A DNA stretch of 44,544 nt from the sequence record ON185580.1; one strand, 5' to 3'. The notes beneath the pieces are model-generated. The model was given only the letters and a program-made list of their open reading frames with translations, did not search any database and had not been told where the DNA came from. This document shows positions 3,000 to 23,960 of the stretch, piece after piece; the stretch's first letter is position 1; the number at the start of each line of letters is the position of its first letter. The position numbers and the translations under genes are program-made. Source of the DNA: Escherichia phage EC120.

Positions 3000-3062
3000 C
3001 CTTATCGGTGGCATCTTCTTAGGTGTCACCTATTAAGGTTTCTTTCACTAGGAGTAAACAAG

Positions 3063-5690
3063 ATGCAAGACCTACACGCTATTCAACTTCAACTTGAAGA
3101 AGAAATGTTTAACGGCGGTATCCGTCGCTTTGAAGCGGACCAACAACGCCAGATTGCATCCGGTAATGAATCAGACACGGCATGGAATCGCCGCTTATTG
3201 TCCGAGTTAATCGCGCCAATGGCTGAAGGTATTCAGGCATACAAGGAAGAGTATGAAGGTAAAAGAGGCCGTGCACCGCGTGCATTAGCTTTCATTAACT
3301 GCGTAGAAAACGAAGTGGCAGCATATATCACGATGAAAATCGTTATGGATATGCTGAACACGGATGTAACTTTGCAGGCTATAGCCATGAATGTAGCTGA
3401 CCGCATTGAGGACCAAGTACGTTTTAGCAAGCTGGAAGGTCACGCCGCCAAATACTTTGAGAAAGTTAAGAAGTCACTTAAGGCAAGTAAGACTAAATCA
3501 TATCGCCATGCGCACAACGTAGCGGTCGTGGCTGAGAAGTCAGTAGCTGACCGTGACGCTGATTTCTCTCGCTGGGAGGCGTGGCCTAAAGATACCTTGC
3601 TACAAATTGGTATGACCTTGCTAGAAATACTGGAAAATAGTGTATTCTTCAATGGTCAGCCTGTCTTTCTTCGCACCTTGCGCACTAATGGTGGCAAGCA
3701 TGGCGTTTACTACTTACAGACTAGCGAACACGTGGGTGAATGGATAACTGCATTTAAAGAGCACGTAGCTCAGCTGAGTCCAGCCTATGCGCCTTGCGTT
3801 ATTCCTCCTCGTCCGTGGGTTTCTCCGTTTAATGGTGGCTTCCATACTGAGAAAGTAGCAAGCCGTATTCGTCTAGTAAAAGGCAATCGTGAGCACGTCC
3901 GCAAGCTGACCAAAAAGCAAATGCCAGCGGTTTACAAGGCTGTTAACGCTTTGCAGGCGACTAAGTGGCAGGTTAATAAAGAGGTTTTGCAGGTAGTAGA
4001 GGACGTTATCCGTCTCGACCTTGGTTATGGTGTGCCTTCCTTTAAACCACTCATCGACCGTGAGAACAAGCCAGCTAATCCAGTGCCGTTAGAGTTCCAG
4101 CACCTGCGAGGCCGTGAATTGAAAGAGATGCTAACACCGGAGCAATGGCAGGCCTTCATCAACTGGAAGGGTGAATGTACTAAGCTGTATACCGCTGAGA
4201 CTAAGCGCGGCAGCAAGTCGGCGGCGACCGTCCGCATGGTAGGACAGGCCCGTAAATACAGCCAGTTTGACGCTATTTATTTTGTATATGCACTGGATAG
4301 CCGTTCACGCGTTTATGCGCAATCTAGCACGCTCTCGCCGCAATCAAACGACTTAGGCAAGGCATTGCTCCGTTTTACCGAAGGGCAGCGTCTTGATAGC
4401 GCTGAGGCGCTTAAGTGGTTTTTGGTGAACGGGGCGAATAACTGGGGTTGGGATAAGAAAACTTTTGACGTGCGCACCTCTAACGTGCTGGATGGCGAAT
4501 TTCAAGACATGTGCCGCGACATTGCAGCCGATCCGCTGACCTTCACTCAATGGGTAAATGCTGATTCCCCTTACGGCTTCCTTGCATGGTGCTTTGAATA
4601 TGCGCGTTATCTGGATGCACTGGATGAAGGCACGCAAGACCAATTCATGACGCACCTACCCGTCCATCAAGACGGTAGTTGCTCTGGTATCCAGCACTAT
4701 AGCGCGATGTTACGCGATGAAGTAGGTGCGAAAGCAGTAAACCTTAAGCCTTCTGACTTCCCTCAAGATATTTATGGCGCGGTTGCGCAGGTTGTTATCC
4801 AGAAGAATTACGCCTACATGAATGCAGACGATGCAGAGACTTTCACATCTGGAAGCGTCACACTTACAGGTGCAGAACTGCGTAGCATGGCTAGTGCGTG
4901 GGATATGATAGGAATCACTCGCGGATTGACCAAAAAGCCCGTAATGACACTACCTTATGGCAGCACACGTCTAACCTGCCGTGAATCAGTGATTGATTAT
5001 ATCGTTGATTTGGAAGAAAAAGAGGCCCAACGAGCTATTGCGGAAGGGCGTACCGCCAATCCTGTACATCCTTTTGATAATGACCGTAAGGACAGCCTGA
5101 CACCTAGTGCAGCTTATAACTATATGACGGCTTTAATCTGGCCTTCTATTTCGGAAGTGGTTAAAGCTCCTATAGTGGCAATGAAAATGATTCGTCAGCT
5201 TGCCCGTTTCGCAGCTAAAAGGAATGAAGGCTTAGAGTATACCTTGCCTACTGGCTTCATCTTGCAACAAAAGATTATGGCTACTGATATGCTCCGCGTA
5301 TCCACTTGCCTGATGGGAGAAATCAAGATGAGTCTACAGATTGAAACGGACGTAGTGGATGAAACGGCTATGATGGGCGCTGCTGCTCCTAACTTTGTGC
5401 ATGGTCATGATGCCAGTCACCTTATCTTAACAGTCTGCGACCTTGTTGATAAAGGGATTACATCTATCGCAGTCATTCATGATTCTTTCGGTACTCACGC
5501 AGGCCGTACAGCCGATCTTCGTGATAGCTTAAGGGCAGAAATGGTGAAGATGTATCAAGGCCGTAATGCCCTGCAAAGCCTGTTAGATGAGCATGAAGAA
5601 CGCTGGTTAGTAGACACCGGAATCCAAGTGCCAGAGCAAGGAGAGTTTGACCTTAACGAAATCTTAGTATCTGACTATTGCTTCGCATAA
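3063..5690 (+). CDS. Single-subunit DNA-dependent RNA polymerase (SP6-type)
   Basis: 875 aa; N-terminus [32 protein letters not shown] and C-terminus ...[10 protein letters not shown]...FA align by recall with SP6 RNAP; catalytic [14 protein letters not shown] and VIHDSFGTH motifs present. Confidence 0.97.
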
Positions 5691-5763: not shown

Positions 5764-5779
5764 GTCTCACATGTGAGAC
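5764..5779. repeat. Palindrome GTCTCACATGTGAGAC (copy 1)
   Basis: Perfect 16-bp palindrome, 2 nt upstream of phage promoter 5782. Confidence 0.8.
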
Positions 5780-6148: not shown

Positions 6149-8137
6149 ATGGCTATTATTCAGAATGTACCGTGTCCTGCCTGTCAAAAGAATGGACATG
6201 ATATTACTGGCAACCATCTTATGATATTTGAGGATGGCGCTGGTTACTGTAACCGTGGTCACTTCCATGATAATGGGAAGCCTTATTACCATAAGCCAGA
6301 GGGTGGTATCGAGATAACCGAATTGCCTATTACTGGCAATATCAAATATACACCTTCTCAATTCAAAGAAATGGAGAAGGAAGGGAAGATAAGCGACCCT
6401 AAGCTACGCGCCATCGCTCTTGGTGGTATGCGTATGAAAGACCGTTGGGAGGTCATGAATGAGCAAGAAAGGGCAGACCAAGAAGCAGAGTGGAAACTTG
6501 ATGTTGAATGGTTCCTCACGCTTAAGCGTAAGAACCTTGTTTCCAGACACATTCGCGGCGACATTTGCGCATTGTATGATGTACGTGTCGGACACGATGA
6601 AGAGGGTAGAGTCTCGCGGCATTACTATCCACGCTTCGAGAAAGGTGAGCTAGTAGGAGCTAAGTGTCGCACATTACCTAAAGATTTTAAGTTTGGTCAT
6701 TTAGGTAAACTCTTTGGTATGCAAGATCTTTTCGGTATGAATACTTTGTCTCACGTGTTAGACAAGGGGAGACGAAAGGATTGCTTGCTTATTGTAGGCG
6801 GTGAACTTGATGCACTAGCAGCGCAGCAGATGCTCCTTGATTCTGCCAAAGGTACTAAGTGGGAAGGACAACCATATCATGTGTGGTCTGTCAACAAGGG
6901 CGAGTCTTGCCTTGAAGAGATAGTGCAGAACCGTGAGCATATCGCCCAATTCAAGAAGATTATATGGGGTTTTGATGGAGATGAGGTAGGGCAGAAGCAG
7001 AATCAGCAAGCGGCTCGCCTGTTTCCTGGCAAATCCTATATCCTTGAATACCCCTCTGGTTGCAAAGATGCTAACAAGGCATTGATGGCTGGCAAGGCCA
7101 AAGAGTTTGTTGATGCATGGTTTAATGCCAAGTCATCTGATGAAGTCTTTGGTAGCCAGATTAAATCTATCGCATCTCAAAGGGATAAGCTCAAGGCTGC
7201 ACGTCCAGAGCAAGGACTATCATGGCCTTGGCCTAAGCTGAACAAGGTAACGCTAGGTATTCGTAAGAACCAACTTATCATTGTAGGCGCAGGCTCTGGT
7301 GTAGGTAAGACTGAGTTCCTTCGTGAAGTAGTTAAGCACCTCATTGAAGAACACGGTGAATCTGTAGGCATCATTTCTACAGAAGACCCGATGGTCAAGG
7401 TGTCCCGTGCTTTTATCGGCAAGTGGATTGATAAGCGTATTGAGTTACCGCCAACCAACGACCCGAAAGAAGATGGATACCGTGAGGTGTTCGACTACAC
7501 CGAGGAAGAAGCCAATGCTGCCATTGATTATGTAGCGGATACAGGGAAGCTGTTTGTGGCTGACCTAGAGGGTGACTATTCGATGGAGAAGGTAGAGCAG
7601 ACTTGCCTTGAGTTTGAGGCTATGGGTATTTCTAATATCATCATTGATAACTTAACGGGGATTAAATTAGATGAGCGTGCTTTTGGTGGGAAGGTTGGTG
7701 CACTTGATGAATGCGTCAAGCGGATTGGTACTATCAAAGACCGACACCCGGTTACTATATTCCTTGTATCGCACCTTACACGTCCTCCGGCAAACCGTAC
7801 CCAACACGAAGAAGGTGGCGAGGTTATCCTTTCTGACTTCCGAGGCTCAGGAGCTATCGGATTCTGGGCATCTTACGCCTTGGGGATTGAGCGTAACACA
7901 AGAGCTGAAACGCTTGATGAAAGAACTACCACGTACATCTCATGTGTCAAAGACCGCGACCAAGGTATCTGGACTGGAACCAAGGTCATGCTTAAGGGTG
8001 ACATTCAAACCGGACGTTTAATGGAACCACAAGCCCGTACTAAGTCATTTGATACAGGTGAAGCAAGGCAACAAGAAGTACCAGATTTACCGGACACTAT
8101 AGAAGAGACTAACTTCGATGAAGAAAGTGAGTTCTGA
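6149..8137 (+). CDS. DNA primase/helicase (T7 gp4-like)
   Basis: N-terminal Cys4 zinc-binding motif (CPACQ...C..GHFHD), Walker A GAGSGVGKTEF, acidic C-terminus ending EESEF. Confidence 0.93.
   Translation: MAIIQNVPCPACQKNGHDITGNHLMIFEDGAGYCNRGHFHDNGKPYYHKPEGGIEITELPITGNIKYTPSQFKEMEKEGKISDPKLRAIALGGMRMKDRWEVMNEQERADQEAEWKLDVEWFLTLKRKNLVSRHIRGDICALYDVRVGHDEEGRVSRHYYPRFEKGELVGAKCRTLPKDFKFGHLGKLFGMQDLFGMNTLSHVLDKGRRKDCLLIVGGELDALAAQQMLLDSAKGTKWEGQPYHVWSVNKGESCLEEIVQNREHIAQFKKIIWGFDGDEVGQKQNQQAARLFPGKSYILEYPSGCKDANKALMAGKAKEFVDAWFNAKSSDEVFGSQIKSIASQRDKLKAARPEQGLSWPWPKLNKVTLGIRKNQLIIVGAGSGVGKTEFLREVVKHLIEEHGESVGIISTEDPMVKVSRAFIGKWIDKRIELPPTNDPKEDGYREVFDYTEEEANAAIDYVADTGKLFVADLEGDYSMEKVEQTCLEFEAMGISNIIIDNLTGIKLDERAFGGKVGALDECVKRIGTIKDRHPVTIFLVSHLTRPPANRTQHEEGGEVILSDFRGSGAIGFWASYALGIERNTRAETLDERTTTYISCVKDRDQGIWTGTKVMLKGDIQTGRLMEPQARTKSFDTGEARQQEVPDLPDTIEETNFDEESEF
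8085..8107 (+). promoter_or_regulatory. Phage-RNAP promoter embedded in 3' end of primase-helicase gene
   Basis: ATTTACCGGACACTATAGAAGAG; expected +1 G at 8102. Confidence 0.6.
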
Positions 8138-8157: not shown

Positions 8158-8175
8158 TGTCTCACATGTGAGACA
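8158..8175. repeat. Palindrome TGTCTCACATGTGAGACA (copy 3)
   Basis: Perfect 18-bp palindrome (extendable with wobble pairs to 8153-8180) right after the primase-helicase stop, followed by CTCTTATT. Confidence 0.8.
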
Positions 8176-9457: not shown

Positions 9458-9662
9458 ATTAAGCAAGGTTTGCTCTTGCGGTAAAGGTTATCGCAGTCGT
9501 ATTGATGGTAAGTGTGGGCATTGCAGGTCTAAGAAAGAGGCTGCTTTGTTTGATAAGTACCACAATGAATTAGCATATAACTATCCTCATCTAACACCTA
9601 ATTCTTTATTAGGACTTGGTTATAGGGTTAAATACTTTGGAGCAATCTATGAAATCAATTGA
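9444..9662 (+). CDS. Small Cys-rich (zinc-ribbon-like) protein (72 aa)
   Basis: GAGG RBS then ATG 9444; CSCGKGY...KCGHC (two CxxC pairs); overlaps DNAP start by 14 nt. Confidence 0.5.
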   Translation: MKTIKLSKVCSCGKGYRSRIDGKCGHCRSKKEAALFDKYHNELAYNYPHLTPNSLLGLGYRVKYFGAIYEIN

Positions 9663-12195
9663 TTGGAAGAAGGAGGCAGAAGGTCGTATCCTCGTGATGG
9701 ATGCGGAAGCTAAAGGACTCCTTGACGCTATCCGATATGGACACCGTGAAGATGTGCATATCATTTGCTGCATGGACTTGCTTACTACCGAGGAGTTTCT
9801 CTTCTTTGACCCGTATGAGATGCGTGACCCTGAAGCAAGAGAACGCCTGAAGGAATGGGAAGGTCATCAAGATGGTGACTTGGTTGATGGTGTTAACTTC
9901 CTGAAGCACTGTGAGGCTATTGTGTCGCAGAACTTCCTAGGGTATGACGGACTCCTCTTTGAGAAAGCATTCCCTAATATCTGGAAAGGTTTTAACTATA
10001 CCGAGAAGCGCGGCAAGGGCAGGCTCCGCGCTGACCTGTGTCCTGTGCGAGTTATGGACACGCTGGTGATGAGCCGCCTGTTAAACCCCGATAGACGCCT
10101 CCCTCCGCAAGCATATGCCAAAGGTATGGGTAACGTCGCCCCTCACTCAATTGAGGCGCACGGCATCCGTATAGGCCGCTATAAACCGGAGAACGAGGAC
10201 TGGTCTAAACTAACTGACCACATGGTTCACCGTGTACGTGAGGACGTGGCGATTGGTCGTGACTTGTTCCTCTGGCTCTTTAACGGGGAATGGATGGAGC
10301 ACAAACGCCGTGGCGTGAATAAACGCACTGGCCTAGGTATTGAGACAGCCTTCCACATGGAGTCCATTGTGGCGCTGGAGATGAGCCGTCAGGCCGAGCG
10401 CGGGTTCCGTCTGGACATCGACAAGGCTTTGGCCCGATGCGAAGAATTGGACGCTAAGATTGATGAGACAGTCGCAGCGTTCCGCCCTCACATGCCTATG
10501 CGTATCAAGTCTAAACCTTTTAAACCGGAAGAAAAGAATGAAGTATGCCAACGCGCAAATGAGTATGGAGCTAGCAACAATATACCTACTGTCCTTGACC
10601 CCTCACACTTTCTTCATGCCGAGAGACGAGGAGATCGCAAGACAGTATGGAGTGTCACTACTAAGTCTGGTGATTGGTCGGCTAGTGTCAAGAAAGACTT
10701 TCCTCACCTTAGAGGAAACCGTAATGACACGCCAAGCATCAAGTGGATTGGCGCTTACTCGCCTGTTACTTTCGAAGAGATTCCCTTGGGTAACAGGGAT
10801 ACAGTTAAGCAAGTGCTCTATGAGTATGGATGGAAAGGTGTTGAATTTAACGATACCGAGCAAGCTCATCTCGATGAGCACGGAGTGTTACCCAAACCTT
10901 GGAGTGGTAAGATAAATGAAAAGTCCCTCACTTTATGGCAAGAAAGAGCCGCACGTGAAGGTAAAACAGTCCCTGATTGGTGCTTGGGTATCGCTGCATG
11001 GTACATACTCGTATCCCGTCGTGGTCAGATACTCAACCGTGGTGACGTTGAAGCCTTCAACGAGAAGGGAACGTGGCCCTCGCAGGCTGGTGTACGAAAG
11101 TGTCGCGGCCTTGTACCTGTAGCATTCAACAAGGAGCTAGGAATCAATGCGCAGCAATACTACGAGAGGTACGGATGTTGGCCTACGTCTGACAAAGATG
11201 ACGGAGAGTGGCGTGTTCCAGCTGTTGCTATTAGTATTGGCACTTCTACGTTCCGTATGCGTCATCGTAACGTGGTTAATATTCCTGCCCGTGGCTTGTA
11301 TCCTTTACGTGATTTATTCATAGCAGGGAAAGGCAAGCTAATCCTTGGTTGTGACGGTGCAGGTCTTGAACTGCGTGTCCTGTCTCACTTCATGAATGAC
11401 CCTGAGTACCAAGAGATTGTACTGCACGGTGATATTCATACGCATAACCAGATGAAGGCTGGTCTTCCTAAGCGTGATATGGCGAAGACGTTTATATACG
11501 CCTTCCTCTATGGTTCTGGTATAGCCAACCTTGCAGCAGTATGTGGTGTTACTGAGGAGGAAATGAAGGAAGTTGTGGCAAGATTCGAGATTGAACTGCC
11601 ATCTCTTGCACGTCTTCGTGAGAATGTTATCGCACAAGGTAACAAGTTTGGCTACCTGCAAGCACCTGATGGGCATTGGGGTCGCATCCGCATGTCTGGT
11701 GGTGAACTTAAAGAGCACACGATGCTTAACGTATTACTCCAGATGACTGGCTCTTTGTGTATGAAATATGCATTAGTAAAGGCATTTGCAGTAATGCGCA
11801 AGGAAGGTGTAGCCTTGGATGCTATGGGAAACCCTTGTGGTGTGGCTAACGTCCACGATGAAATCCAGATGGAAGTTCCTGAAGAAGAGGTCTTGTACCT
11901 TAACTATGACCTACCTTTCACCTTAGAAGGGTTTGAAACAGAGAAGGCTGCTGTGAAAGCAGTTTTCGATGCAGAAGAGAAACGTGTTCATGTGGATTCT
12001 GAAGGACGTATGTGGTCTGCTGCAAACCTCGTTAGTATTGATGCTGATGCTGGTGTACTTCATTGTCAGCGCCGTTATCACCGTGCTGGGCATATCATTG
12101 CCGACGCCATGACTTGGGCTGGTCAGTATCTGAAGATGCGTTGCCCGATGGCAGGAGAATATAAGATTGGCGCAAGCTGGAAGGAAACACACTGA
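9649..12195 (+). CDS. DNA polymerase (family A, T7 gp5-like)
   Basis: Exo I motif VMDAEAKGL, Pol A motif DGAGLELR, motif B KTFIYAFLYGSG, motif C VHDEIQ. ATG 9649 chosen (track start 9616). Confidence 0.95.
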   Translation: MKSIDWKKEAEGRILVMDAEAKGLLDAIRYGHREDVHIICCMDLLTTEEFLFFDPYEMRDPEARERLKEWEGHQDGDLVDGVNFLKHCEAIVSQNFLGYDGLLFEKAFPNIWKGFNYTEKRGKGRLRADLCPVRVMDTLVMSRLLNPDRRLPPQAYAKGMGNVAPHSIEAHGIRIGRYKPENEDWSKLTDHMVHRVREDVAIGRDLFLWLFNGEWMEHKRRGVNKRTGLGIETAFHMESIVALEMSRQAERGFRLDIDKALARCEELDAKIDETVAAFRPHMPMRIKSKPFKPEEKNEVCQRANEYGASNNIPTVLDPSHFLHAERRGDRKTVWSVTTKSGDWSASVKKDFPHLRGNRNDTPSIKWIGAYSPVTFEEIPLGNRDTVKQVLYEYGWKGVEFNDTEQAHLDEHGVLPKPWSGKINEKSLTLWQERAAREGKTVPDWCLGIAAWYILVSRRGQILNRGDVEAFNEKGTWPSQAGVRKCRGLVPVAFNKELGINAQQYYERYGCWPTSDKDDGEWRVPAVAISIGTSTFRMRHRNVVNIPARGLYPLRDLFIAGKGKLILGCDGAGLELRVLSHFMNDPEYQEIVLHGDIHTHNQMKAGLPKRDMAKTFIYAFLYGSGIANLAAVCGVTEEEMKEVVARFEIELPSLARLRENVIAQGNKFGYLQAPDGHWGRIRMSGGELKEHTMLNVLLQMTGSLCMKYALVKAFAVMRKEGVALDAMGNPCGVANVHDEIQMEVPEEEVLYLNYDLPFTLEGFETEKAAVKAVFDAEEKRVHVDSEGRMWSAANLVSIDADAGVLHCQRRYHRAGHIIADAMTWAGQYLKMRCPMAGEYKIGASWKETH

Positions 12196-12476: not shown

Positions 12477-12499
12477 GATTTACTGGACACTATAGAAGG
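12477..12499 (+). promoter_or_regulatory. Phage-RNAP promoter (consensus copy)
   Basis: ATTTACTGGACACTATAGAAGGA; expected +1 G at 12494. Confidence 0.75.
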
Positions 12500-12564
12500 A
12501 AAGCCTAGACAATCTAGGTTTATAAGGTAGTATAGGTAATTAAGTAAATATAGGAGATATAAAC

Positions 12565-12942
12565 ATGTCTATGGTAACTACTCTGGTATTTGTAGCTCAA
12601 TACTTTCGTGGTCTGGCTAATAAGTTCAAGTCCAAGGCTATCAAAGCTATTGAGTCTCGCATCGAGGCAGTACAGGCAGAGCAGGTTAAAGTTGAAGAAC
12701 ATCGTAGTTCTCAAATGATTGACTGCCATAACCGCTACTATGCATCTCGTGATGACCTTAATGCACGCCAAGTCAAAGAGGTTGAAGAGATGCTGGCACG
12801 TCACCAGCAAGAGCGCGACAGTCTGAAAGCTGAATTTGAAGAGAACAAGGCATCCATCGCCCTTGTACATCAAGCCGCATCTGACAGCCTGAAGAAAGAG
12901 ATTGTTATGCTGGAAATTGAGTTAGACAACCTGACCAAATAA
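12565..12942 (+). CDS. Hypothetical coiled-coil protein (125 aa)
   Basis: AGGAGA RBS; heptad-rich charged sequence. Confidence 0.65.
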   Translation: MSMVTTLVFVAQYFRGLANKFKSKAIKAIESRIEAVQAEQVKVEEHRSSQMIDCHNRYYASRDDLNARQVKEVEEMLARHQQERDSLKAEFEENKASIALVHQAASDSLKKEIVMLEIELDNLTK

Positions 12943-13104: not shown

Positions 13105-13911
13105 ATGGCACGTGGTGATTTTGATTTTGGTGCTCAGGTTACTAAGGCTGAAGGTAAAGTATTTAAGAACCCTGAAGTTGGTGATCATGAAGCAGTAATC
13201 TCTGGCATCATTCATGTTGGTTCCTTCCAAGATATTTTTAAGAAAGGTAATACCACTGAGGTTAAGAAGCCAGCAAACTTTGTTCTTGTTAAGATTATCC
13301 TGATGGGTGACGACGACAAGAATGAAGATGATTCTCGCATGGAACAGTGGATGGCTGTGCCTCTGAAGTCTGGTGACAAGGCAACCTTGACTAAGTTCCT
13401 GAATGCAGTTGACCCTAAAGAGCTGCTTGGTGGTTTCGATGACTTCATCGGTGAATGCCTGACTGCAACTATGGTTGGCTCTGGCGACAAGAATGATGAT
13501 GGTACTTTCAAGTATGTTAACTGGAAAGGCTTTGGCGGTATGCCTGATAAGTTGAAGAAGCTTGTACTGGCTCAGGTAGAAGAGGAAGGTCTGTCTATGA
13601 CAGGTCATATCACCTTCGACAAGCTGACCAAAGAAATCCTTGATGACATCCCAGCTAACTTGGTGCGTCAATACTTCCTTAATGAAACACCTCGTGGTAA
13701 GAACCTGTCTGTTGCTGGTTCTCACGTAGAAGCAATCATTAAAGCTGCTCGTGAAGAAGACCCAGAGTGGAAGAAAGCCAAGAAGAAAGATGACGAGGAT
13801 GCTACTCCAGCTAATCGTAAATCTCTGGATACTGGTGAGTCTGTTCCACAGGAAGTACCTGAAGCAGAAGATACTCCTGCACCGGAGATGGATGAGGACG
13901 CGGAATATTAA
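13105..13911 (+). CDS. Acidic-tailed protein (268 aa); candidate ssDNA-binding protein
   Basis: AGGAGA RBS; C-terminus ...PEAEDTPAPEMDEDAEY (acidic tail ending in an aromatic residue, as in T7 gp2.5). No direct sequence similarity to T7 gp2.5 recognised, so the function is inferred. Confidence 0.7.
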   Translation: MARGDFDFGAQVTKAEGKVFKNPEVGDHEAVISGIIHVGSFQDIFKKGNTTEVKKPANFVLVKIILMGDDDKNEDDSRMEQWMAVPLKSGDKATLTKFLNAVDPKELLGGFDDFIGECLTATMVGSGDKNDDGTFKYVNWKGFGGMPDKLKKLVLAQVEEEGLSMTGHITFDKLTKEILDDIPANLVRQYFLNETPRGKNLSVAGSHVEAIIKAAREEDPEWKKAKKKDDEDATPANRKSLDTGESVPQEVPEAEDTPAPEMDEDAEY

Positions 13912-13920
13912 GGAGAAAGG

Positions 13921-14139
13921 ATGAAAGTACAAATCGTAACCCTGCACTGCAAGAAAGGTATCACAACGCTCGTAGGTAGCACTTTCCACTCTTTCTCCGA
14001 AGGGGAGATTTATGCTGACCTGCACTACATCTGGCGCGATGGACAGCACGTGGTGAACTACAGCGACCCAGCTACGGGGAAACGCCACGGCGTATCGCTT
14101 CCTGCGCATGACATTGCTCAGGTGAACACAGTTTTATAA
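13921..14139 (+). CDS. Hypothetical protein (72 aa)
   Basis: AAGGAGAAAGG RBS then ATG. Confidence 0.55.
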   Translation: MKVQIVTLHCKKGITTLVGSTFHSFSEGEIYADLHYIWRDGQHVVNYSDPATGKRHGVSLPAHDIAQVNTVL

Positions 14140-14140
14140 A

Positions 14141-14156
14141 GTCTCACATGTGAGAC
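14141..14156. repeat. Palindrome GTCTCACATGTGAGAC (copy 5)
   Basis: Perfect 16-bp palindrome starting 2 nt after the stop of ORF 13921-14139; 15 nt upstream of promoter 14172. Confidence 0.8.
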
Positions 14157-14171
14157 AAATCGGTGTCCGGT

Positions 14172-14194
14172 ATTTACTGGACACTATAGAAGAG
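14172..14194 (+). promoter_or_regulatory. Phage-RNAP promoter (consensus copy)
   Basis: ATTTACTGGACACTATAGAAGAG; expected +1 G at 14189. Confidence 0.75.
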
Positions 14195-14243
14195 AAGAAT
14201 TTTAATCGGCGATAATGCCACAACTAACAAAGGAGAATTTAAT

Positions 14244-14618
14244 ATGTTCAAGATTGAAACTATCGTAAACCGTGTTGTTAAAGGTGCTGCTCTGGTATCC
14301 GTTGAGTCTTTCATTATCGTCGATGAAGCTGATCAACTGGTAGCTGGTACTAAGGCTTATGATACTCGTGAAGAAGCTCAGGCTAAGATTGACAGCATGG
14401 GTAACTTCGCTGCGGGTCTGGAGTTCGCTCGTGCTTGCTTCCCTGAGCAGGCTGACAAAGCTCAGATTGGTAAGGCTAATATCGTAGCTGAATATCTGGA
14501 TTGGATTGCTGCTGGTAAGCCGGTGAAAGAAGTTAAAGCTGCGGAAGAAGTTGAAGCTCCGGCAGTAGAAGAAGTAGCTGCACCGGAAGTTCCGGTAAGC
14601 GAAGAAGAAGAGTTTTAA
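14244..14618 (+). CDS. Small acidic protein (124 aa) with C-terminal EEEEF tail
   Basis: Own promoter, strong RBS (AAAGGAGAA) and a terminator hairpin directly downstream; codon usage looks highly expressed. Confidence 0.7.
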   Translation: MFKIETIVNRVVKGAALVSVESFIIVDEADQLVAGTKAYDTREEAQAKIDSMGNFAAGLEFARACFPEQADKAQIGKANIVAEYLDWIAAGKPVKEVKAAEEVEAPAVEEVAAPEVPVSEEEEF

Positions 14619-14624
14619 TTGATG

Positions 14625-14657
14625 CCCTGTCTGCCTTAGTGTAGGCAGGGTCTTTTG
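14625..14657 (+). terminator. Hairpin terminator after ORF 14244-14618
   Basis: 10-bp stem CCCTGTCTGC/GTAGGCAGGG (two G-U pairs), loop CTTAGT, then TCTTTTG; same architecture as the post-capsid terminator. Confidence 0.5.
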
Positions 14658-14682
14658 CGTAATAGTTATTGGAGAATGAATT

Positions 14683-14973
14683 ATGCCGACTATTGAAGAA
14701 CGTTTCCTGATTCACGTGAGCTTCTCATCCATACATCTTGGTTATCTTATCACTATCCTCTTAGGTGAAGAGATTTATCTGCATAACCACTTAATACCAG
14801 AGTATGTATGTCACCGAGATAAGATACACCCTGCTAATTGGGCGAAAGAGTGGCTGCGTGAACATGTGCTGAAGGAGTGGCCTACATGCGACCAAACTTC
14901 GACTTCGGAGCTACAGTATCGGAAGACAATAACCTGTTGCTGTGGCCGACTGAAGGTAATCGAATCGCTTTAA
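14683..14973 (+). CDS. Hypothetical protein (96 aa); overlaps exonuclease start by 88 nt
   Basis: GGAGA RBS then ATG 14683; the long overlap lowers confidence. Confidence 0.35.
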   Translation: MPTIEERFLIHVSFSSIHLGYLITILLGEEIYLHNHLIPEYVCHRDKIHPANWAKEWLREHVLKEWPTCDQTSTSELQYRKTITCCCGRLKVIESL

Positions 14974-16309: not shown

Positions 16310-17309
16310 GCTTCGCAGCTTGTACAAAGACTCCGAGGTACTTGATGCAATCGAGCAAGCTACCGACGAGAAAGGTAATGTTAATTACAATGAGATGGCA
16401 CGTGTATTATCGTGTCACCCTGTGGGTAAGAAGATTACCCGCCAGTTGGCTCGATACTGGCATGGTCAATTCAAGAAGACCAAGAAGAATGGTGATTATT
16501 ACCAGACCCTTCTGCAAGAAGATAAGCGTATCAAAGAAGAGCGTAAGCTCAGGACTCCTGACCGCTACGAGGATTTGGCTATTGTACCATTGCCTGACTC
16601 GCCTCATCGAAGTGTATTGGTAATCCCTGATACTCATGCACCTTATGAGCATCCAGATACCTTAGAGTTCCTTGCAGCAGTCGCGGCACGTTACCGTCCA
16701 GATACAGTGGTTCACTTAGGAGATGAGGCAGATAAACACGCCCTCTCCTTCCATGACTCTGACCCGAATCTGGATAGTGCTGGCATGGAGCTAGAGAAGG
16801 CTCGTGTCTTCATGCACAAGTTGCACAAGATGTTCCCTGTGATGCGCCTGTGTCATTCTAATCACGGCTCTATGCACTTCCGTAAGGCAAGCGCCAAGGG
16901 TATTCCAGTGCAATATCTTCGCACCTACCGTGAAGTCTTCTTCCCAAATGGAGGTGGCGACCAGTGGGATTGGCAGCATACACATGTTCTTGAGTTGCCG
17001 AATGGCGAACAGGTGGCATTCAAGCATCAACCTGCTGGCTCTGTCCTAGCAGATGCAGCGCATGAGCGTATGAACCTTGTGTGTGGTCACTTGCACGGTA
17101 AGATGTCTGTGGAGTACGCACGTAATACACATGAACAGTATTGGGCTGTGCAAGGTGGCTGCTTAATTGATGAGTCATCCCGTGCATTTGCCTATGGGCG
17201 TGAGTCTAAATACAAGCCAGCATTAGGTTGTGTGGTTATTCTGGAGGGTGTACCTCATATTGTCCCGATGCAAACCAATAGCGACAACCGTTGGATTGGC
17301 AAGATTTAG
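16302..17309 (+). CDS. Calcineurin-like metallophosphoesterase (335 aa from TTG; alternative ATG at 16393)
   Basis: Motifs IPDTHAPYEH (DxH), HLGDEADKH (GDxxD), CHSNHG (GNH-like), CGHLHG (GHxH). Strong AAGGAGG RBS 6 nt before TTG 16302. Confidence 0.75.
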   Translation: MGKLRSLYKDSEVLDAIEQATDEKGNVNYNEMARVLSCHPVGKKITRQLARYWHGQFKKTKKNGDYYQTLLQEDKRIKEERKLRTPDRYEDLAIVPLPDSPHRSVLVIPDTHAPYEHPDTLEFLAAVAARYRPDTVVHLGDEADKHALSFHDSDPNLDSAGMELEKARVFMHKLHKMFPVMRLCHSNHGSMHFRKASAKGIPVQYLRTYREVFFPNGGGDQWDWQHTHVLELPNGEQVAFKHQPAGSVLADAAHERMNLVCGHLHGKMSVEYARNTHEQYWAVQGGCLIDESSRAFAYGRESKYKPALGCVVILEGVPHIVPMQTNSDNRWIGKI

Positions 17310-20158: not shown

Positions 20159-21709
20159 ATGAAACAGAGCACAGATTTGGAGTATGGAGGTAAGCGGTCT
20201 AAGATACCTAAGCTATGGGAGAAATTCTCCACTAAACGTAGCTCTTTCCTTGATAGGGCGAAGCATTACTCCAAATTAACCTTGCCCTATCTGATGAATG
20301 ACAAAGGTGATAACGAGACTTCGCAGAATGGATGGCAAGGTGTAGGTGCTCAGGCAACCAACCATCTAGCCAACAAGCTAGCGCAAGTACTATTCCCTGC
20401 ACAGCGTTCCTTCTTCCGTGTAGACTTAACTGCACAAGGTGAGAAGGTTCTTAATCAGCGTGGCCTGAAGAAGACAGAGCTAGCTACCATCTTCGCTCAA
20501 GTGGAAACACGGGCAATGAAAGAGTTAGAGCAACGTCAATTCCGGCCTGCTGTAGTAGAAGCATTTAAGCATCTTATTGTTGCTGGCAGCTGTATGCTAT
20601 ACAAGCCGAGCAAAGGTGCAATCAGTGCTATCCCAATGCATCACTACGTAGTTAACCGTGATACCAATGGCGACCTGTTAGACATTATCTTGCTACAAGA
20701 GAAAGCCTTACGTACCTTTGACCCAGCTACACGTGCTGTAGTAGAGGTTGGCCTGAAAGGTAAGAAGTGCAAAGAAGATGACAGCGTTAAGCTGTACACA
20801 CATGCTAAGTATCTTGGTGATGGATTTTGGGAACTCAAGCAATCTGCTGATGATATCCCTGTGGGTAAGGTGAGTAAAATCAAATCAGAAAAGCTACCTT
20901 TCATCCCATTAACTTGGAAGCGAAGCTATGGTGAGGATTGGGGTCGCCCTCTTGCAGAGGATTACTCCGGTGATTTATTCGTTATCCAATTCTTATCTGA
21001 AGCGGTTGCCCGTGGTGCTGCGCTGATGGCAGATATCAAGTACCTGATTCGTCCGGGTGCTCAAACTGATGTTGACCACTTTGTTAACTCTGGCACTGGT
21101 GAGGTTATCACTGGTGTAGAAGAAGACATCCATATTGTACAGTTAGGTAAGTATGCAGACCTCACACCTATTAGCGCGGTTCTAGAGGTATACACTCGCC
21201 GTATCGGTGTTGTCTTCATGATGGAGACAATGACACGCCGTGACGCCGAACGTGTTACTGCTGTAGAAATCCAGCGAGATGCGTTAGAGATTGAGCAGAA
21301 CATGGGTGGTGTATACTCCCTCTTTGCTACTACTATGCAATCGCCAGTAGCGATGTGGGGTCTGCTGGAGGCAGGGGAGTCCTTCACTAGTGACCTAGTG
21401 GACCCTGTGATTATCACAGGTATTGAAGCTTTAGGACGCATGGCTGAGTTGGATAAACTGGCTAACTTTGCTCAGTATATGTCACTGCCATTACAATGGC
21501 CTGAGCCTGTCCTAGCTGCTGTGAAATGGCCTGACTATATGGATTGGGTGCGTGGTCAAATCTCTGCTGAACTGCCGTTCCTTAAATCAGCTGAAGAGAT
21601 GGCACAAGAACAGGAAGCACAGATGCAAGCACAGCAAGCACAGATGCTTGAAGAAGGTGTGGCTAAGGCCGTGCCGGGTGTAATTCAACAAGAACTTAAG
21701 GAGGCGTAA
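20159..21709 (+). CDS. Portal (head-to-tail connector) protein
   Basis: SQNGWQGVGAQATNHLANKLAQVLFP parallels recalled T7 gp8 (QTPWQAVGARGLNNLASKLMLALFP); 516 aa. Confidence 0.9.
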   Translation: MKQSTDLEYGGKRSKIPKLWEKFSTKRSSFLDRAKHYSKLTLPYLMNDKGDNETSQNGWQGVGAQATNHLANKLAQVLFPAQRSFFRVDLTAQGEKVLNQRGLKKTELATIFAQVETRAMKELEQRQFRPAVVEAFKHLIVAGSCMLYKPSKGAISAIPMHHYVVNRDTNGDLLDIILLQEKALRTFDPATRAVVEVGLKGKKCKEDDSVKLYTHAKYLGDGFWELKQSADDIPVGKVSKIKSEKLPFIPLTWKRSYGEDWGRPLAEDYSGDLFVIQFLSEAVARGAALMADIKYLIRPGAQTDVDHFVNSGTGEVITGVEEDIHIVQLGKYADLTPISAVLEVYTRRIGVVFMMETMTRRDAERVTAVEIQRDALEIEQNMGGVYSLFATTMQSPVAMWGLLEAGESFTSDLVDPVIITGIEALGRMAELDKLANFAQYMSLPLQWPEPVLAAVKWPDYMDWVRGQISAELPFLKSAEEMAQEQEAQMQAQQAQMLEEGVAKAVPGVIQQELKEA

Positions 21710-22629
21710 TGTCTTTCTCATTTACTGAACCGTCAACCACTCACCCTACTACTGAAGAGGGTCCGGTAGAAACCAAGGAGGTAACAACTGATGCTGCTAC
21801 TACTGATGCTACTGCTGACGCTGGCACTGCTGTACAAGATGACAATGCTGGTGCACAACCTACTGAAGACACCGGAGGAGAAGCTTCTGGACAGCCTTCA
21901 GAAAAAGGAGACAATGGCGGAGAGAATGGTGAATCTAAGCCAGATGATACCGCGACCGACACTGAGGAAGTGCAATACTTCTTCGGAGAACATGAAGTAA
22001 CAATAGACATCCCACAGGATGTAACTGACAGCCTTAAAGAGAAAGGCATTGATGCCAAGCAGGTTGCCAAGGAACTATATTCCAAAGGTGGCAAGTTTGA
22101 ACTGTCAGATGTAACCAAGCAGAAATTGTATGATGCTTTTGGCAAGTTTGCGGTAGATGCTTACCTGTCAGGTCTTAAGGCTCAAAATGAAGCCTTCTTC
22201 CTGAAAGAAGCCAACGCAGCTAAAGAGTTGGAAGCAGCTAACACCCAACGCTTCTCTGATGTTTCTAAGGAAATTGGTGGCGAAGAAGGTTGGTCCCGTC
22301 TTGAGGAGTGGGCGCTTGAAACGCTATCCGATGACGAACTCACGGCATTCAATGCTGTGATGGAGTCTGGCAACCAGTACCTCCAGCAGTACGCTGTGCG
22401 TGAACTGGAGAGCCGCCGTAAGGCTGCACAGGGTGATGATAGGCCATCCCTGATTGAGCCATCAGCACCTGCTAAGGCTAATGAAGAGAATGGCCCACTG
22501 ACGCGAGATCAGTACGTTCAAGCAATCGCAACTCTTAGCCAGAAGTACGGCAATGACCGTAAAGCTATGGCAGAAGCTCAGGCTAAACTGGACGCCCGTC
22601 GCCGTGCTGGCATGGCTCGCGGTATCTAA
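21709..22629 (+). CDS. Capsid assembly (scaffolding) protein
   Basis: Highly acidic, T/A/E/D-rich 306-aa protein between portal and capsid genes; start overlaps portal stop. Confidence 0.75.
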   Translation: MSFSFTEPSTTHPTTEEGPVETKEVTTDAATTDATADAGTAVQDDNAGAQPTEDTGGEASGQPSEKGDNGGENGESKPDDTATDTEEVQYFFGEHEVTIDIPQDVTDSLKEKGIDAKQVAKELYSKGGKFELSDVTKQKLYDAFGKFAVDAYLSGLKAQNEAFFLKEANAAKELEAANTQRFSDVSKEIGGEEGWSRLEEWALETLSDDELTAFNAVMESGNQYLQQYAVRELESRRKAAQGDDRPSLIEPSAPAKANEENGPLTRDQYVQAIATLSQKYGNDRKAMAEAQAKLDARRRAGMARGI

Positions 22630-22635
22630 TTCAGT

Positions 22636-22658
22636 ATTTACTGGACACTATAGAAGGG
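22636..22658 (+). promoter_or_regulatory. Phage-RNAP promoter upstream of major capsid gene
   Basis: ATTTACTGGACACTATAGAAGGG; expected +1 G at 22653; transcript begins with stem-loop GGGAGAA/TTCTCCC (22656-22672). Confidence 0.8.
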
Positions 22659-22708
22659 AGAAAAGTTCTCCCTAGTTATCAATTTGATTTATAAGGAGAT
22701 TATAATAC

Positions 22709-23917
22709 ATGTCTACACCGAATACTCTGACTAACGTTGCTGTATCTGCATCCGGTGAGGTTGACAGCCTTCTCATTGAGAAGTTTAATGGTAAGGTCAA
22801 TGAGCAGTACCTGAAAGGTGAGAACATTCTGTCCTACTTTGATGTACAAACTGTTACTGGCACTAACACAGTGAGCAACAAATATTTGGGCGAAACTGAG
22901 TTGCAGGTGCTAGCACCGGGTCAGTCTCCTAATGCCACCCCCACTCAGGCGGATAAAAACCAGTTGGTAATTGATACCACTGTCATTGCTCGTAACACTG
23001 TGGCTCACATCCACGATGTACAAGGTGACATCGATAGCCTGAAACCAAAATTGGCTATGAACCAAGCCAAGCAACTGAAACGTCTGGAAGACCAGATGGC
23101 AATTCAGCAGATGCTGTTAGGCGGTATTGCTAACACCAAGGCCAAACGTAACAAGCCGCGTGTTAAAGGGCATGGCTTCTCTATCAACGTTAACGTAACT
23201 GAGAGTGAAGCACTGGCTAACCCTCAGTATGTTATGGCTGCGGTAGAGTATGCTCTGGAGCAACAGCTTGAGCAGGAAGTGGACATCTCTGATGTAGCTA
23301 TCATGATGCCGTGGAAGTTCTTCAATGCTCTGCGTGATGCAGACCGAATTGTAGATAAGACTTACACTATCAGCCAGTCTGGTGCAACCATTAATGGCTT
23401 CGTTCTCTCTTCTTATAACTGCCCTGTGATCCCGTCTAACCGATTCCCTACCTTCGCTCAGAATCAGGCTCACCACCTGTTGTCTAATGAAGATAACGGC
23501 TATCGTTATGACCCTATCGCAGAGATGAATGGTGCAGTTGCTGTTCTGTTCACTGCCGACGCACTGCTGGTGGGTCGTACCATTGAAGTGACTGGTGACA
23601 TCTTCTATGAGAAGAAAGAGAAGACTTATTACATTGACACCTTCATGGCTGAGGGTGCAATCCCTGACCGTTGGGAAGCAGTGTCTGTAGTTACCACTAA
23701 ACGTAATGCAACTACTGGTGCTGCTGAAGGTTCTGGTGATGATCACGCAACCGTACTGGCTCGTGCACAGCGTAAGGCTGTATATGTCAAAACCGAAGGT
23801 GCTGCGGCTGCATTCTCTGCTGCCCCAGCAGGTATCCAAGCGGAAGACCTTGTAGCGGCGGTACGTGCTGTAATGGCAAATGACATCAAGCCGACTGCAA
23901 TGAAACCTGCTGAGTAA
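22709..23917 (+). CDS. Major capsid protein
   Basis: 402 aa; own promoter, strong RBS TAAGGAGA and a terminator directly downstream; T7 gp10-like position. Confidence 0.9.
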   Translation: MSTPNTLTNVAVSASGEVDSLLIEKFNGKVNEQYLKGENILSYFDVQTVTGTNTVSNKYLGETELQVLAPGQSPNATPTQADKNQLVIDTTVIARNTVAHIHDVQGDIDSLKPKLAMNQAKQLKRLEDQMAIQQMLLGGIANTKAKRNKPRVKGHGFSINVNVTESEALANPQYVMAAVEYALEQQLEQEVDISDVAIMMPWKFFNALRDADRIVDKTYTISQSGATINGFVLSSYNCPVIPSNRFPTFAQNQAHHLLSNEDNGYRYDPIAEMNGAVAVLFTADALLVGRTIEVTGDIFYEKKEKTYYIDTFMAEGAIPDRWEAVSVVTTKRNATTGAAEGSGDDHATVLARAQRKAVYVKTEGAAAAFSAAPAGIQAEDLVAAVRAVMANDIKPTAMKPAE

Positions 23918-23925
23918 TACCTATG

Positions 23926-23960
23926 CCCTATCTACCTTGCGTAGGTAGGGTTCTTTTTTT
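23926..23960 (+). terminator. Intrinsic terminator after major capsid gene
   Basis: Stem CCCTATCTACC/GGTAGGTAGGG (one G-U pair), loop TTGC, then TTCTTTTTTTG; positional analogue of T7 T-phi. Confidence 0.7.

Follow-up and report, generated by a model that had tools for sequence, protein, structure and literature searches.

Between the DNA polymerase and exonuclease genes of Escherichia phage EC120 lies a gene of 124 codons with a promoter, a ribosome-binding site and a terminator of its own. Is this locus a device for making one small acidic protein in bulk, and if so, what would the phage use that much of it for? We analysed the whole stretch of 44,544 nucleotides (sequence record ON185580.1), called the window below; all coordinates refer to it.

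The window is a complete Vectrevirus genome, that of a K1-5/K1E/SP6-like podophage (Autographiviridae, Molineuxvirinae). Over 14100–14700 it shares 100% identity with Escherichia phage EEc4 and 96–99% with dozens of K1-5-like phages. All genes lie on the + strand. The early genes are followed by those for RNA polymerase, primase-helicase and DNA polymerase, several small genes and the exonuclease gene; then come endonuclease VII, phosphoesterase, ligase, portal, scaffold, major capsid and the tail genes. The product of the gene in question, gene 18, is gp18 of phage K1-5, listed as SP6_20 in one SP6 record. The following genes serve as landmarks:

3063–5690, + strand: RNA polymerase gene
6149–8137, + strand: primase-helicase gene
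9616–12195, + strand: DNA polymerase gene
13105–13911, + strand: gp16 gene, encoding 268 aa with an OB-fold and an acidic tail that ends in EMDEDAEY
14244–14618, + strand: gene 18 ORF, encoding 124 aa with a pI of 4.33
21709–22629, + strand: scaffold gene

Gene 18 belongs to the DNA-metabolism module; the portal gene lies 6 kb downstream of it. In the relatives compared, both gene 18 and the gp16 gene are always found between the DNA polymerase and exonuclease genes, and for gene 18 this position is constant across Molineuxvirinae and Colwellvirinae.

Expression signals of gene 18

The elements of the gene 18 cassette, together with the major capsid cassette to which it is compared, are these:

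14172–14194, + strand: predicted SP6-type phage RNA polymerase promoter, ATTTACTGGACACTATAGAAGAG, an exact match to the window consensus
14189–14243, + strand: 5' leader of gene 18, 55 nt
14208–14219, + strand: small possible hairpin in the leader, GGCG..TGCC, weak (4 pairs, some compensatory change)
14230–14235, + strand: Shine-Dalgarno sequence AAGGAG, 8 nt before the ATG at 14244
14624–14657, + strand: predicted intrinsic (class I type) terminator, an 11-bp GC-rich hairpin (14624–14651) followed by CTTTTG
22636–23957, + strand: major capsid cassette, with promoter (22636–22658), 56-nt leader, gene (22709–23917) and terminator (23925–23951)

The promoter belongs to the SP6-type class in that it matches the consensus of this phage (ATTTA..GACACTATAGAAG) over about 23 nt, has a G at +1 and recurs upstream of genes on the coding strand. 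Eight copies with at most three mismatches occur in the window, against none in 100 shuffles; the promoter core is present 12 times, on the + strand in every case. Only the copies at 14172 and 40034 reproduce the consensus exactly. By the SP6 convention, the predicted +1 is G14189, 55 nt before the ATG of gene 18. A phage-type promoter (..TATAGA..) is located directly upstream of the gene 18 homologue in at least 8 of 10 relatives, and in Vibrio phage AS51 a promoter is annotated at this place. The Shine-Dalgarno sequence is strong but not unique, as several other genes have an equally good one.

At the other end, the hairpin starts 6 nt after the stop codon and has a folding energy of −18.3 kcal/mol. 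With its stable GC-rich stem, the immediate U-run and its place downstream of a stop codon, it has the properties of an intrinsic terminator. Strong hairpins with a T-rich tail (stem of 10 bp or more with 5 or more G-C pairs) occur at four places on the + strand (3007, 5698, 14624 and 23925), compared with a mean of 0.15 in 60 dinucleotide shuffles. We compared ten phages of nine host genera: Escherichia (the window and K1-5), Pectobacterium, Erwinia, Klebsiella, Proteus, Vibrio, Pseudomonas, Marinomonas and Aeromonas. All ten have a hairpin and T-run within 60 nt after the gene 18 homologue (−16 to −26 kcal/mol); the stems differ in sequence, with compensatory double changes in 7 of 11 aligned pairs. 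For UAB_Phi78 and SP6, the literature already records a terminator at the same position, behind ‘a protein of unknown function’ (PMC4837284).

Only gene 18 and the capsid gene stand alone between a phage promoter with a short leader (55 nt for the former, 56 nt for the latter) and a strong Shine-Dalgarno sequence on one side and a terminator on the other. The remaining two strong hairpins, at 3007 and 5698, lie in the early, host-transcribed region and have no phage promoter upstream. A preliminary description of this DNA had put forward a consensus phage promoter 55 nt upstream of the ORF, a near-ideal ribosome-binding site, a hairpin terminator directly downstream and an arrangement common only to gene 18 and the major capsid gene. 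All four statements hold, the last of them across the whole window.

The same layout is familiar from the gene 10 unit of T7 (phi10 promoter, leader, strong Shine-Dalgarno sequence, Tphi), which like the gene 18 cassette serves a single gene and ends in a hairpin with a U-run. Here it is the capsid gene that has the layout of the T7 unit, and gene 18 copies its leader length and a similar terminator sequence. Unlike the T7 unit, the gene 18 cassette drives a small middle-gene protein and not a structural one, and its terminator must let pass the transcription of four downstream genes.

Two further features of the capsid cassette were observed. Its terminator and that of gene 18 (23925–23960 and 14624–14657) are alike, ATGCCCTGTCTGCC..GGCAGGGTCTTTTG for gene 18 versus ATGCCCTATCTACC..GGTAGGGTTCTTTTTTTG for the capsid gene, and the differences between their arms are paired, as if the two had been duplicated or had co-evolved for the same polymerase. 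The capsid leader (22653–22708) has a strong 5' hairpin, GGGAGAAAAGTTCTCCC, a few nucleotides after +1, reminiscent of the stabilising stem-loop in the phi10 leader of T7.

The codons of gene 18 point in the same direction as its signals. Its E. coli codon adaptation index (CAI) of 0.662 ranks first among 49 ORFs, ahead of gp16 (0.508, second) and the capsid gene (0.489), with a median of about 0.28; the CAI weights follow Sharp & Li 1987, and the reference-free effective number of codons (Nc) agrees, its value of 30.7 for gene 18 being the genome minimum. Almost only E. coli major codons are used: GCT for 19 of 23 Ala, GGT for 6 of 6 Gly, CTG for 4 of 4 Leu, CGT for 3 of 3 Arg and CCG for 4 of 5 Pro, CTG and CCG being minority codons in the rest of the genome. 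Our literature search, part of which was badly targeted, found no usable transcriptome or proteome of the SP6-like phage group.

From these sequence features we conclude with high confidence that the gene 18 cassette is built as a dedicated high-output expression unit. A monocistronic unit with a consensus-strength promoter, a short leader, a strong Shine-Dalgarno sequence, host-optimal codons and a 3' hairpin would give a short, stable and heavily translated mRNA. The proposal of the preliminary description that the protein is likely made in very large amounts is strengthened by the top CAI, the lowest Nc and the conservation of the layout in relatives; high abundance of gp18 is what codon bias and signals predict. 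The cassette also offers a compact, naturally optimised expression unit for SP6 RNA polymerase.

The hairpin probably has a second role. The next phage promoter after 14194 is at 17304, with none in between, so that gene 19 and the exonuclease, endonuclease VII and phosphoesterase genes need read-through transcription. The hairpin would then also be an attenuator for the downstream genes 19–22: partial read-through would supply these promoter-less genes at a much lower level, splitting bulk synthesis of gp18 from low synthesis of nucleases.

The gp18 protein and its acidic tail

The protein belongs to PHROG 4429 (E = 1.1e-57, residues 1–124 against positions 1–121 of a 121-position profile), to which no function is assigned; in the database records examined, the gene is labelled ‘hypothetical’. 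The family is present in 212 phage records, whose hosts span Vibrio, Pseudomonas, Marinomonas, Aeromonas and Enterobacterales. Among 1.8 billion representatives, an exhaustive phmmer search retrieved only 24 clusters, which contain only small phage proteins. A profile search retrieved 310 proteins; the 120 of them listed are all 110–128 aa long and mostly encoded on contigs of at most about 45 kb. No domain fusion occurs among these listed matches, hence they offer no Rosetta-stone clue. In the literature we found no functional study of gp18.

The protein consists of two parts:

14244–14528, + strand: folded head, codons 1–95 (AlphaFold2 model, pLDDT above 90)
14529–14618, + strand: disordered linker rich in Ala, Glu, Pro and Val that ends in SEEEEF-COOH, codons 96–124 and the stop codon (pLDDT about 60)

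In structure prediction, one of the checks named in the preliminary description, the model, built on 21 diverse sequences, gave a confident head (residues 1–95) but no significant fold match. The head is composed of a β-hairpin (residues 3–26, with strands 3–13 and 16–26) and three helices (residues 42–51, 53–65 and 71–89). Its pI is 4.56, with 14 acidic and 9 basic residues. In the alignment, K37, A45, G58, A64, K72, K77, A78, N79, A82, W87 and G91 are near-invariant. The head resembles DUF1508/UPF0339, a YegP-like β-hairpin-helix module, only below significance, and none of the 21 diverse family members gives a Pfam match to it at E up to 1; to our knowledge, DUF1508 has no known function. 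Searches with gp18 in Pfam, NCBIfam and PADLOC returned nothing meaningful, and sequence searches of the PDB, with the single protein and with profiles, returned only chance matches (TraR and GH20).

The informative trait of the family is at its very end. Of 179 members, 175 have a C-terminus in which an acidic run leads to an aromatic residue, usually Phe, at one of the last two positions. The last six residues take 40 distinct forms, for instance SEEEEF, SEEETF, SEEVDF, EGEESF, DDDENF and NPEETF, and the linker before them varies freely in sequence and length while the acidic, aromatic-tipped end stays. Only three sizeable proteins of the window end in this way: the primase-helicase (NFDEESEF), gp16 and gp18.

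Such tails are known from T7, the textbook minimal replisome, which relies for its coordination on those of gp2.5 and gp4, acidic and tipped with Phe. Both attach to the front basic patch of T7 DNA polymerase, and the Phe at their end is critical for function (PMC12339929 and references cited there). The gp2.5 tail ends in EEADEDGDF and that of gp4 in WSNDTDF, compared with VSEEEEF in gp18. In all three, the C-terminus is disordered and acidic with a final Phe, and the gene is part of the replication module. Unlike the T7 proteins, gp18 has a body that is neither an OB fold nor a helicase, namely the 95-aa domain of a β-hairpin and three helices. The front basic patch, KWKRRW in T7, aligns to -WGRIRM in the polymerase of the window, which keeps two of the four basic residues. 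As a separate observation, the tail of the primase-helicase suggests by analogy that the T7 mode of tail-to-polymerase docking may be conserved in this distant subfamily.

Compared with SSBs of the gp2.5 type, gp18 has the acidic, aromatic-tipped disordered tail but not the OB-fold DNA-binding core. We rejected gp18 as the phage SSB, the OB fold being in gp16 and not in gp18. It can instead be described as an SSB-type interaction tail on a new body. The likely SSB of this phage, analogous to gp2.5 of T7, is gp16: among its homologues, 85 of 87 end in Phe or Tyr after acidic residues. Its gene has its own promoter. Its distribution is nearly identical to that of gp18, 215 versus 212 phage records with the same host breakdown. 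In their study of remote gp2.5 homologues, Lopes et al. 2010 do not mention SP6, K1-5 or K1E in the main text.

Several of these traits appear to be undescribed in the available literature: the extreme codon bias of gene 18, the family-wide acidic, aromatic-tipped tail on a head without OB fold, the co-occurring OB-fold protein gp16 with the same tail, and the apparent lack of a structural relative for the gp18 head.

Candidate functions of gp18

For the acidity of the protein, the preliminary description had offered two explanations, a nucleic-acid mimic or a replisome accessory protein. The second fits better, given the tail, the position between polymerase and exonuclease and the SSB-like neighbour; a mimic of the Ocr type is unsupported. 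The reading that we favour, with a confidence that stays somewhat below even, is that gp18 is an abundant protein of the replication and recombination phase, where it would act stoichiometrically and dock via its acidic, Phe-tipped tail. Its docking place would be the basic sites into which the SSB (gp16; gp2.5 in T7) and the primase-helicase insert their own tails, whether these sites belong to the DNA polymerase or to the OB cleft of the SSB. With the conserved Lys/Asn/Trp face of its head, gp18 would bind a further partner, which may be DNA or another replisome protein.

A more specific form of this reading is possible, and correspondingly more doubtful. It would make gp18 a third tail-bearing component of the replisome, without OB fold and made above the level of the capsid protein, whose tail competes or hands over with those of gp16 and the helicase at the polymerase. 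The protein would then be a regulator or adaptor of tail-mediated traffic, one without a T7 counterpart, and the phage would offer a natural case of competition among three proteins for one docking mode. The sister group of T7, formed by SP6, K1-5 and their relatives, contains widely used therapeutic and biotechnological phages and has no annotated SSB; should both gp18 and gp16 prove to be replication proteins with such tails, there would be candidate roles for two conserved core genes of this group.

The predicted output of gp18 exceeds that of the capsid protein and goes beyond what a catalytic accessory would need, so that it would suit the titration of an abundant host factor just as well. 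In such a host takeover, gp18 would bind an abundant host protein in bulk, for example a nucleoid protein, or would act as a decoy of the E. coli SSB tip (DDDIPF), competing for or recruiting SSB-interacting enzymes of the host such as ExoI, RecQ, PriA or Pol III chi. Stoichiometric amounts are what the extreme codon bias and the dedicated promoter and terminator suggest, and a tail of the gp18 type is common to bacterial SSBs. T7 has a precedent in the same interval between polymerase and exonuclease, which holds the genes of gp5.5, an abundantly made H-NS binder, and of gp5.9, an acidic RecBCD inhibitor. Neither of these two, however, has the acidic Phe tail, and profile comparison detects no sequence relation of gp18 to T7 gp5.3, gp5.5, gp5.7 or gp5.9. 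The tail of gp18 also lacks the Ile-Pro of the SSB tip. Moreover, the family is kept by phages whose hosts differ widely, and its distribution tracks that of the phage's own gp16 almost exactly, for which a phage-internal partner is the better explanation. We regard titration of a host protein as unlikely, if still deserving of attention.

The conserved residues K37, K72, K77, N79 and W87 may be read in yet another manner, as the nucleic-acid-binding site of a second abundant coating protein, without OB fold and comparable in its role to p5 or p6 of phi29. On this account the Lys/Trp face would bind DNA or RNA, while the acidic tail would auto-inhibit the site and couple the protein to the polymerase, as in gp2.5. 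An architecture of tail plus basic or aromatic site mirrors that of SSBs, and the predicted abundance would suit a protein that coats nucleic acid. We nevertheless consider a coating protein improbable, and continue to prefer a stoichiometric replication protein that docks by its tail.

An anti-restriction or anti-defence DNA mimic of the Ocr/ArdA type could account for the overall pI of 4.33 and the probable high copy number. The negative charge, however, resides mainly in the disordered tail and not on a rigid DNA-shaped surface, the head being only mildly acidic, and gene 18 is a middle gene behind a phage promoter instead of an early one. It is also a core gene of fixed synteny, unlike typical accessory anti-defence genes, and no PADLOC, Pfam or structural match links gp18 to known mimics. 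Such a role is very improbable.

A decoration or scaffold-like virion protein encoded outside the structural module, to which the expression architecture shared only with the capsid gene and the scaffold-like acidity might have pointed, is scarcely credible and was rejected, as gene 18 sits in the DNA-metabolism module far upstream of the portal gene, the scaffold has a separate gene and no PHROG structural annotation exists for gp18.

Minor elements of the window

The strong hairpin at 3007–3030 (10 bp, 5 G-C pairs, moderately T-rich tail) sits between a 310-aa early gene (2067–2999) and the RNA polymerase gene, which starts at 3063. It is a possible early attenuator.

Besides gp16, the window encodes gp15 (12478–12942), a predicted coiled coil of 125 aa whose gene ranks fourth in CAI and has a phage promoter of its own (12478). 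The label of gp15 in PHROG and RefSeq, ‘polysaccharide chain length determinant protein’, goes back to weak, coiled-coil-like matches (TIGR03007 reaches 21 bits, the cutoff being 279), and we take it for a probable annotation artefact.

A repeated element adjoins the gene 18 promoter:

14141–14156, no strand assigned: perfect 16-bp palindrome GTCTCACATGTGAGAC, 2 nt after the stop codon of the upstream gene and 15 nt before the promoter

Copies of GTCTCACATGTGAGAC (16 bp, at most two mismatches) are found at 326, 5764, 5948, 6748, 8159, 9303, 14141 and 30801, eight compared with 0.17 expected, and seven of the eight are intergenic. Neither the palindrome nor the window as a whole gave a match in Rfam. 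A phage promoter follows 2–15 nt downstream of the copies at 5764, 5948 and 14141. At 8159, 9303 and 30801, G-U wobbles lengthen the stem to about 12 bp, and a T-rich run comes after it; this pattern suggests an RNA hairpin. The copy at 14141–14156 may form a hairpin at the 3' end of the upstream transcript or serve as a protein-binding site. Relatives keep a palindrome at the same place with changed half-sites: GTCCAACGTGTTGGAC in PP1, TGTCCAACAGTGTTGGACA in a Proteus phage and GTCTCACGGCGTGAGAC in Vibrio phage AS51.
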